Part shown: positions 19,571-19,911 of the stretch, piece after piece
Position numbering within the stretch: position 1 is the stretch's first letter
How the letters are laid out: every line of letters starts with the position of its first letter
IMG/VR virus record: IMGVR_UViG_3300002835_005179
Span: 1 to 64,000 of that record
Strand: one strand, 5' to 3'
DNA: 64,000 nt
Source of the DNA: a virus
Lineage: Duplodnaviria > Heunggongvirae > Uroviricota > Caudoviricetes
Position numbers and translations under genes: made by a program
The notes under the pieces: generated by a model
What the model was told of the DNA's origin: nothing
Database searches by the model: none
The model's input: the letters and a program-made list of their open reading frames with translations, nothing else

Positions 19571-19637
19571 AAAGAATATCTCCTTTATTTTCAATATCTT
19601 ACTGCAAACTATTGATTCTAAAGAGAATATTCTTTCG
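19571..19637. repeat. palindromic intergenic element, copy 1
   Basis: AAGAATATCTC...GAGAATATTCTT outer inverted arms around a TTTTCAATA core. Related copies at 41061-41188 and 63921-63985. Confidence 0.6.
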
Positions 19638-19645
19638 AAAAAAAC

Positions 19646-19674
19646 TTGCTTCGGTTGAATGGATAAGGTATAAT
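19646..19674 (+). promoter_or_regulatory. sigma70-like promoter TTGCTT-N17-TATAAT (leaderless start)
   Basis: TTGCTT at 19646, TATAAT at 19669 with a 17-bp spacer. The ATG at 19681 lies 6 nt after the -10 box. The same AATAAGGTATAAT block occurs at 33416 and 41218. Confidence 0.5.
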
Positions 19675-19680
19675 GGTTCT

Positions 19681-19911
19681 ATGAAAAGGAAAACTGTTCG
19701 GGTGACTGATGTTGTCGATACTGTGAATCGAATTTTAGATGTTTCCACGTGTTCTGTCGATACTCGCTGGGGCATGATTGCTGTTCTTGAACAGATTCTT
19801 CACGACTCAGGAAATTACAAGGGATATAATAATGTCAAAGACGGAAAGATTTGTGGATACAAAGAACAGCCTGATGACACGAGACGATATTATTATGGCG
19901 GGACGAAGTAA
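19681..19911 (+). CDS. hypothetical protein
   Basis: The track ORF 19612..19911 starts at a TTG inside the palindrome. The in-frame ATG at 19681 sits right after the promoter. Confidence 0.4.
   Translation: MKRKTVRVTDVVDTVNRILDVSTCSVDTRWGMIAVLEQILHDSGNYKGYNNVKDGKICGYKEQPDDTRRYYYGGTK

Follow-up and report, generated by a model that had tools for sequence, protein, structure and literature searches.

What role can a long palindrome have when it stands, copy after copy, upstream of promoters whose -10 hexamer is followed only a few nucleotides later by a start codon? This question is raised by the 64,000-nt stretch of the virus record IMGVR_UViG_3300002835_005179 analyzed here (Caudoviricetes; positions 1 to 64,000 of the record, hereafter the window), in which a repeated palindromic intergenic element precedes a TTGCTT-N17-TATAAT promoter within 19571-19683. 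The window has a GC content of 34% and encodes T4-type core genes, and its source is a distant T4-like myophage. Judging from sequence comparisons, we favor, with a confidence that is about evenly balanced, the hypothesis that element and promoter together form an immediate-early cassette resembling the promoter-early stem-loops (PeSLs) described in RB49/phi1, T4/PST, and KVP40/nt-1 (Arbiol 2010; Comeau 2014, PMC4122927), and that the palindrome would act at the DNA level as an upstream promoter element with a putative binding protein.

First, the palindromic elements belong to one 66-nt repeat family. A repeat search recovered copies at 19571-19636, 41062-41127, 41128-41193, and 63921-63986 (copies 1 to 4), of which copies 2-4 are 71-77% identical to copy 1. 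A hidden Markov model (HMM) built from the copies has exactly four matches in the window, with E values of 1e-16 to 1e-18, and no others. Both searches therefore bear out the four sites listed in an initial annotation of this DNA. All copies are imperfect palindromes, and when the plus strand is folded as DNA, copies 1, 3, and 4 beat shuffled sequences by 2.6-4.2 standard deviations whereas copy 2 does not (z = -2.6, -0.05, -2.6, and -4.2 for copies 1-4). Folding as RNA predicts a long hairpin on at least one strand of each copy (-14 to -24 kcal/mol; z of -3 to -4.5), and for copy 2 solely on the minus strand.

Second, each copy is joined to a single promoter of the sigma70 type. An A-tract, TTGNNN, a spacer of 16-17 nt, (GG)TATAMT, six further nucleotides, and an ATG follow the element in that order, and the 66-bp near-palindrome and its promoter, 30 bp from the -35, make a repeat unit of about 115 bp (table 1). 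That palindrome and sigma70-like promoter form one unit had been proposed in the initial annotation, which described a TTG(C/A)TT-N16-17-...GGTATAAT module; we find this module at 19646-19674 (N17), 41203-41230 (N16), and 33401-33429 (N17), and TATAAT precedes the ATGs of 19681 and 41237 by exactly 6 nt. Overlooked at the time was that copies 2 and 4 serve minus-strand promoters. On that strand, copy 2 is followed by AAAAAACT-TTGATT-N16-TATACT-GAATGT-ATG(41017) and copy 4 by AAAAAAAC-TTGCTC-N17-TATAAT-GGTTGT-ATG(63876). Because these two copies are fused to minus-strand promoters, every copy belongs to one promoter, and the 41-kb junction consists of two cassettes placed back to back. The module in front of gp55 shares the same -35 and -10 but lacks the palindrome and has a normal leader with GAGG, and the leftward promoter near copy 1 (19516-19544) is uncoupled from the element, lying at a distance of 47 nt instead of 30.

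Copies 1-3 are located at the two divergent strand switches of the window, as had been stated for the element in general, but copy 4 is not. Contig L017, which is 100% identical to window positions 60429-64000 (3572 nt) and reaches 4.8 kb beyond, continues past the right side of copy 4 with a Nudix-like gene on the minus strand, and the open reading frame (ORF) of this gene ends within the element. Since this gene is on the same strand and reads into copy 4, the copy lies between same-strand genes rather than at a divergent boundary, and the same is true of arrays found in related phages.

Third, the architecture recurs in related contigs drawn from IMG/VR and Joint Genome Institute (JGI) metagenomes. 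Two pattern scans of viral contigs, one metagenome scan, and an HMM search gathered 112 sites with 66 unique cores from 50 related contigs or loci. Every element adjoins one promoter and none is shared by two, divergent promoter pairs using two copies. Promoters of the form TTGNNN-N16/17-TATAMT lie beside all four window copies and at 37 junctions in relatives. The distance from the promoter-proximal half-site core (AYTSA) to the TTG of the -35 is 30 nt at 14 of 17 junctions in one set and at 32 of 37 in another, and this register is kept although the last 10-13 nt of the linker vary (TTTCGAAAAAAAC, TTTCGAGGCCTCC, AATTTAGAATTTCC, and others). Both spacing and core are kept between phages whose coding DNA is only ~70-77% identical. 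The conserved core, TTTGTTTTCAA ... TGCAAGTSAYTGA, is asymmetric, and its orientation to the promoter is close to 50:50; no fixed orientation was seen among junctions inspected by hand (13 vs 13) or among the 37 junctions (22 vs 15).

The window itself has only four copies at three sites; same-strand arrays of up to 4-5 copies per 1.5 kb are found in relatives (L044, with four copies in 1.2 kb, L109, L115, and L085), and in these the element starts 0-3 nt past the upstream stop codon (L044 5681/5683 and 6299/6303; L115). Divergent junctions in relatives read, in order, leftward promoter, element, a segment of 130-180 nt, element, and rightward promoter. The central segment, absent from the window, is non-coding, has a GC content of 45-54% (the phage has ~34%), and carries GC-rich hairpins as well as GGTATACC..GGTATACC palindromes; a small RNA, an origin, and a regulatory locus are candidate identities for it. 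The central segments of the relatives did not align into one family, and an Rfam search at gathering thresholds found no family on the element or the central segments, returning the transfer-messenger RNA (tmRNA) and tRNAs only. A distant blastn search with the junction of copies 2 and 3 gave only 39-nt matches to Thermus phage phiYS40 (E = 6e-3), which we attribute to chance.

Fourth, the geometry of these promoters points to leaderless messages. Sites of the form TTGNNN-N16-18-TATANT number 39 in the window, compared with 17.6 +/- 4.3 in dinucleotide shuffles, and nine of them have an ATG 5-7 nt downstream, where 1.0 is expected and the maximum in 100 shuffles was four. These nine comprise the four cassette genes and the ATGs at 16360, 39311, 51253, 47275, and 63196. 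With the -10 hexamer at -12 to -7, a gap of 6 nt puts the A of the ATG at +1, and a start codon 5-8 nt past the -10, as found in the window and in relatives, leaves no room for a Shine-Dalgarno sequence. The Pfam match of the DUF6915 gene begins with residue 2 on profile position 1, and the alignments of gp43 with PHROG 262 and with its cyanophage counterpart both begin at residue 1; these N-terminal alignments indicate that the ATGs are real starts. Relatives whose polymerase is 77-79% identical carry TTGCTT-N17-TATAAT-AGTTACT-ATG and TTGCTA-N17-TATAAT-ATATT-ATG, with different intervening bases, and the -10 is 6 nt from the ATG at 22 of the relatives' 37 junctions. No comparable -10/ATG geometry was seen in more distant marine relatives (polymerase 35-38% identical). 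The geometry is limited to the first gene after such promoters, and other genes have AGGAG-type Shine-Dalgarno sites. We thus predict, as did the initial annotation for ORFs 19681 and 41237, that the first-gene mRNAs are leaderless, a prediction with strong backing from geometry, N-terminal homology, and conservation in relatives.

Cassette promoters and stand-alone leaderless promoters differ in sequence. The former combine a -35 of TTGCTW or TTGATT with a GGTTCT discriminator, and their -35 hexamers are weaker than the TTGACT and TTGACA of the latter. Directly upstream of the stand-alone promoter of the dCMP deaminase gene lies a perfect AT-only palindrome (16403-16425, AAAATTAAAATATTTTAATTTT), a different, short stem-loop that occupies the PeSL position.

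The element has no match in the cultured Pelagibacter phage HTVC008M (147 kb), and this genome offers a single convincing case of a -10 followed by N6-ATG, namely denV; thus, the feature is not general to pelagimyophages. The case itself reads TTGCCA-N17-TATAAT-N6-ATG (NC_020484, 76441-76478) and coincides with the annotated denV start (76476), and it suggests that occasional leaderless-type starts may exist outside this lineage. The literature searched for leaderless starts turned up no T4-like phage for which their systematic use is reported. Thermus phage phiYS40, which reportedly has leaderless transcription units, provides a phage precedent.

How might the palindrome contribute? We hypothesize that the cassette is built on a host sigma70-type promoter with a suboptimal -35 (TTGCTW or TTGATT), a spacer of 16-17 nt, (GG)TATAAT, and the GGTTCT discriminator. 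Given its geometry, transcription should begin at the A of the start codon, and the first gene would be translated from a leaderless mRNA. The 66-bp quasi-palindrome, starting exactly 30 bp upstream of the -35, would offer a host or phage protein a platform for sequence-specific binding or bending, and the promoter-proximal A/T-rich arm and the A-tract would lie where the C-terminal domain of the RNA polymerase alpha subunit contacts UP elements. The proximal arm of copy 1, GAGAATATTCTT, and its A-tract (19622-19643) occupy -59 to -38, the UP-element position, and when mapped by hand match 11 of the 15 specified positions of the UP consensus reported by Estrem et al. (1998), which makes this stretch a putative UP element.

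The pattern of conservation argues for recognition of the DNA itself. Positions T24-T26 and G41 are at least 90% conserved, and columns 24-26 are paired in merely 7-8 of 27 copies. Two variants (in L050 and L053) have the inner stem destroyed and TGCAAGTGAYTGA retained. Among classifiable copies, the halves combine as A...B' (25), A...A' (12), and B...A' (2), with no B...B', and at least one TTTGTTTTCAA half is retained in every such copy. Furthermore, the orientation of the core is unrelated to the direction of transcription, transcribed arrays being found in both (L044 vs L115). That the palindrome belongs to the promoter is also favored by the pairing of each copy with a single promoter, by the fixed 30-nt register, and by the weaker -35 hexamers of cassette promoters.

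Candidates for the binding protein can be named. The exact core of the integration host factor (IHF) consensus, WATCAANNNNTTR, is present in the B-type half of copies 1, 2, and 4 (consensus and lambda pL reference as cited in PMC8942017). Accepting R at position 6 gives matches in 17 of 30 unique copies, and a relaxed consensus matches 29 of the 30. Pfam scans of about 30 small early proteins of the window gave no HU or IHF homologue, and the sole clear DNA-binding candidate among them is a 71-residue winged-helix protein of the early region (61945-62160, minus strand; Pfam HTH_39, E = 6e-9), which is a candidate binder of the element.

Several observations weigh against a DNA-level role. For IHF as a candidate binder, the exact WATCAANNNNTTR core is limited to three of the four window copies and to 11 of the 30 unique ones. 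The perfectly symmetric copies lack it, and its frequency across the window (15 sites vs 11.9 expected) shows no enrichment; we therefore keep the IHF site as a lead only. The rigid spacing could result partly from copying of the whole cassette as a unit. The symmetry of the element is real: across 27 copies, 75% of cells are paired, compared with 43-48% when the partner is slid; and 11 pairs are altered on both sides, the most striking being columns 16-18 with 61-63 and a complete exchange of the outer arms, from AAGAATAT/ATATTCTT to TTTTTATT/AATAAAAA. A hairpin would account for such compensatory symmetry as well, as would a symmetric protein or quasi-palindrome correction in the course of replication. 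Finally, the same-strand arrays place the element right after stop codons, where a terminator is expected.

These last points bring in the main rival, a terminator or insulator of the PeSL type, in which an RNA hairpin would stop the upstream transcript, each early gene would be expressed from its own promoter as a leaderless message, and the link to the promoter would be merely positional. We consider this less likely than the DNA-level role. The element of the arrays begins 0-3 nt past upstream stop codons, its predicted RNA hairpins reach -14 to -24 kcal/mol, its outer stem shows compensatory changes, and its U-rich 3' arm, AUAUUCUUUC, and A-rich 5' arm are like those of bidirectional terminators. 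There is also a rationale for insulation, since a leaderless cistron could not be translated from a read-through transcript, and the stem-loops of RB49/phi1 PeSLs are reported to be effective terminators (PMC4122927). However, the element is AT-rich and has neither a GC-rich stem nor a free U-tail, and a terminator scan of the window did not flag it. The same scan did find canonical GC-rich stem-loops with T runs (table 1), which implies that the phage uses ordinary intrinsic terminators; two of these (44224-44240 and 55840-55865) were flagged on both strands, the first near the convergence point at 43.2 kb. No transcript arrives at divergent junctions, yet each promoter there has its own copy. 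A terminator also leaves the rigid 30-nt spacing, the conservation of unpaired positions, and the broken inner stems of some variants without explanation. We looked for an orientation that favors G:U pairs and follows the direction of transcription and did not see one: arrays run both ways (L044 vs L115), so that what pairs as G:U on one strand is A:C when the opposite strand is transcribed. Lastly, translation of the ORF upstream of copy 4 passes the loop and enters the 3' arm. The DNA-level element that we favor and a terminator or insulator are not mutually exclusive.

A second rival, which we regard as improbable, is that the element is a selfish or neutral repeat, similar to miniature inverted-repeat transposable elements (MITEs) or repetitive extragenic palindromes, or that it arises as a side effect when cassettes are duplicated and quasi-palindromes corrected, with no regulatory role and with the promotion of rearrangements as its main effect. 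Rearrangements are indeed associated with it. Contig L032 (= L106; 2100-2300), 99% identical to the window, has position 52580 joined to 38 nt of the copy 3 core (41141-41178) and then to 40985, which is 33 nt (11 codons) into gene 41017; this fusion puts the operon that starts at 52559 under the leftward cassette promoter. The same contig has a 137-nt indel at window position 41745. The dCMP-deaminase block of L044 is inverted and lies on the other side of the junction, L115 retains a half-element remnant before a full copy (E3), and L047 has an additional small gene with its own cassette beside the element. PeSLs and degraded half-PeSLs behave likewise in rearrangements (Comeau et al., PMC4122927). 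These cases match PeSL behavior and are anecdotes, not statistics; because the whole cassette is repeated, it offers homology for rearrangements between related phages. Against a selfish repeat, no target-site duplications were found beside the window copies or at the relatives' junctions examined, the element never occurs away from a promoter and is always in register, and its spacing and core sequence persist despite ~70-77% identity of coding DNA. A MITE was rejected on these grounds in spite of the inverted arms, and no transposase or RAYT family was matched by Pfam among about 30 window ORFs scanned.

We think it very improbable that the element is a replication origin, or a cruciform or DNA-unwinding element at strand-switch points. 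Copies 1-3 do coincide with both divergent strand switches, and the paired elements of relatives flank a GC-richer segment of 130-180 nt that is apparently a special non-coding locus. However, copy 4 and many of the relatives' copies lie within same-strand arrays, and the window lacks the central segment. In T4 origins of the oriF/oriG type, moreover, the unwinding element is downstream of the promoter, not upstream.

The least probable reading is that these are MotA-type middle promoters rather than sigma70 -35 promoters, with TGCTT as the MotA-box core that the initial annotation saw in it: most cassette -35s are TTGCTT or TTGCTA, but TGCTT lies at -34 to -30, 3 bp upstream of the T4 position, the hexamer is variable (TTGATT, TTGATC, TTGCTC, TTGCTA, TTGCCT, and TTGCGT occur), and the spacing of 16-17 nt is canonical for sigma70. 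We reject the MotA-box reading for its position and for the variability of the hexamer. The T4 MotA box, (a/t)3TGCTTtA, has its centre at -30 and lies about 12 bp away from the -10, and Hinton's review of T4 middle promoters is said to place its TGCTT at about -31 to -27. Comparison of about 30 ORFs of the window with Pfam and of 20 with PHROGs gave no MotA or AsiA match in this incomplete genome. Middle-promoter prediction also failed in pelagimyophage genomes (PMC7029224).

Among described systems, PeSLs are the closest analogue of the cassette, as the initial annotation recognized, but they were described in T4-like coliphages and vibriophages and not, as it had supposed, in cyanophages; for cyanophage S-PM2, a PeSL mechanism was deemed unlikely by the authors (PMC4503421). 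A study of pelagimyophages mentions neither palindromes nor leaderless promoters (PMC7029224). PeSLs consist of an A/T-rich region with a stem-loop, a sigma70-like early promoter, and then a Shine-Dalgarno sequence and start codon; they are repeated in hyperplastic regions and are implicated in shuffling (PMC4122927). Both PeSLs and the present cassettes are repeated composites that head small early genes, with an A/T-rich region and a stem-loop directly before a strong sigma70-like early promoter. Tandem arrays in variable regions, with indels and rearrangements between close relatives, are a further PeSL trait that the cassettes may share: arrays are seen here in relatives, and one strain-level rearrangement runs through the element (L032). 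The two differ in several respects. The PeSL stem is short and variable, whereas the element is an AT-rich quasi-palindrome of 66 bp, strongly conserved in sequence even at mostly unpaired positions. The cassette has a fixed distance of 30 nt to the -35 and one copy per promoter even at divergent junctions. PeSLs end in a Shine-Dalgarno sequence and start codon, whereas the cassette has no Shine-Dalgarno sequence and its ATG is 6 nt past the -10. Finally, the PeSL stem-loop is reported to be an effective terminator, and termination is only a candidate role here. The cassette therefore appears to be kin to PeSLs, with the long conserved palindrome, the fixed register, and the missing Shine-Dalgarno sequence as new traits.

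Two further kinds of system bear comparison. Leaderless genes are known in Actinobacteria, Deinococcus, and some Alphaproteobacteria. As in these bacteria and in phiYS40, the -10 is 5-7 nt before the start codon, there is no Shine-Dalgarno sequence, and many genes are involved; the difference is that only the first gene after a sigma70-type promoter is affected here, and downstream and late genes use Shine-Dalgarno sequences. IHF assists promoters with a distal UP element, as at lambda pL, and IHF sites lie within repeated palindromes such as the RIB, RIP, and BIME elements of E. coli and the Correia elements of Neisseria. The cassette is similar in having an A/T-rich upstream region centred near -80, an IHF core in many copies, and UP-like A/T arms, and in being a repeated intergenic palindrome that carries promoter functions. 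It differs in that no more than 11 of the 30 unique copies have the exact consensus, and in that its invariant half, TTTGTTTTCAA, does not correspond to an IHF core.

Table 1. Cassettes, promoters, and other features of the window, with central segments of related contigs (positions refer to the window unless a contig is named)
Feature	Position	Strand	Remarks
Element copy 1	19571..19636	+	A...B' type; core ATTGA 19611-19615, 30 nt before -35
Linker	19637..19645	+	with A-tract TCGAAAAAAAC
Promoter TTGCTT-N17-TATAAT	19646..19674	+	copy 1
First gene, 76 aa	19681..19911	+	no family match; ATG 6 nt past -10; leaderless predicted
Promoter TTTACA-N17-TATAAT	19516..19544	-	serves leadered gene 19280-19480; read by hand
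Element copy 2	41058..41127	-	best HMM orientation minus; serves leftward promoter
Promoter TTGATT-N16-TATACT	41024..41051	-	copy 2; ATG 41017, 6 nt past -10
First leftward gene, 254 aa	40253..41017	-	phrog_5855 (unknown function)
Element copy 3	41128..41193	+	directly abuts copy 2; serves rightward promoter
Promoter TTGATT-N16-TATAAT	41203..41230	+	copy 3; ATG 41237, 6 nt past -10
First rightward gene, 129 aa	41237..41626	+	
Element copy 4	63921..63986	-	after same-strand Nudix-like gene ending inside element
Promoter TTGCTC-N17-TATAAT	63883..63911	-	copy 4; ATG 63876, 6 nt past -10
First gene after copy 4, 82 aa	63628..63876	-	
gp55 promoter TTGCTT-N17-TATAAT	33401..33429	+	without palindrome; 23-nt leader with GAGG
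Stand-alone promoter TTGACA-N17-TATAAT	51261..51289	-	no palindrome; DNA polymerase ATG 51253, 7 nt past -10
Stand-alone promoter TTGACT-N17-TATACT	16367..16395	-	dCMP deaminase ATG 16360, 6 nt past -10
Stand-alone promoter TTGACT-N17-TATAAT	39317..39345	-	DUF6915 gene ATG 39311, 5 nt past -10
Stand-alone promoter TTGACT-N17-TATAAT	47282..47310	-	X-Ser repeat peptide ATG 47275, 6 nt past -10
Stand-alone promoter TTGATA-N17-TATACT	63203..63231	-	short ORF ATG 63196, 6 nt past -10
GC-rich stem-loops with T runs	44224-44240, 55840-55865, 56949-56973, 61920-61942		terminator scan
rIIA	21166-23391		T4-type core gene
gp55 late sigma	33453-33998		T4-type core gene
gp46-like SbcC	35053-36774		T4-type core gene
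gp43 DNA polymerase	48740-51253	-	T4-type core gene
Permuted two-piece tmRNA, alphaproteobacterial type	37828-38207	-	RF01849, 92.9 bits; RF04321, 99.9 bits
Central segments	L036:171-315, L036:7056-7204, L004:11394-11543, L015:2147-2325, L044:5198-5336, L053:7182-7315		related contigs

The phage that carries these cassettes has no close sequenced relative among the records compared: megablast with 3 kb around copy 1 found no near-identical DNA among 50,697 phage records, and the portal and polymerase are at most 47-50% identical to their cyanomyophage counterparts. Besides the core genes of table 1, tail sheath, portal, and large terminase are encoded in the window. Late genes have TATAAATA-like motifs and regular AGGAG-type ribosome-binding sites. 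The alpha-type tmRNA hints at a proteobacterial host; two-piece tmRNAs of this type are also found in pelagimyophages and in the OM43 phage Melnitz (PMC9004378).

Some further genes are worth recording. Genes for a nicotinamide phosphoribosyltransferase (17753-19276, minus strand) and a Nudix-like hydrolase (L017 3513-3953, minus strand) both flank cassette sites, and the pair looks like NAD-salvage auxiliary genes, as in other large myophages. The sole tRNA of the window (24146-24220, plus strand) has a CUA anticodon, would decode amber, and may be a suppressor tRNA; ARAGORN labels it tRNA-Pyl. Small tandem genes on DNA repeats with a 12-nt period are located at 20422-21165 (plus strand) and 46897-47275 (minus strand). 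Their products are peptides of about 68 residues in which MIKKSIYKRNI is followed by (G/W/R/E)-Ser dipeptide repeats, and the two loci are inverted copies, 86-89% identical across up to 338 nt.

Early transcription is poorly understood in T4-like phages outside the enterobacterial group (cyano-, pelagi-, and related myophages), from which MotA and AsiA are generally reported to be missing. The cassette brings to this problem three testable properties: its palindrome lies upstream at a rigid distance, its -35 is suboptimal, and its start codon is predicted to fall at +1. We tentatively propose, with somewhat less than even confidence, that a whole lineage of T4-like phages, uncultured, probably from freshwater, and equipped with a two-piece tmRNA of the alpha type, runs its early programme through leaderless mRNAs: all sigma70-type promoters would start on the AUG of the first gene, including that of DNA polymerase, and the strongest, immediate-early promoters would depend on a 66-bp palindromic enhancer held in fixed helical register and recognized by a putative host or phage factor. 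For metagenomic contigs of the lineage, the conserved 115-bp unit is a handy marker of where early operons begin. If our proposal is true, T4-like phages can use leaderless translation for first cistrons, even for gp43, which in T4 is autoregulated at its own ribosome-binding site. The PeSL idea, in which mobile promoter cassettes shuffle early genes, would be extended to a new phage group, and the cassette would represent an early-promoter architecture and a translation strategy not described for T4-like phages.

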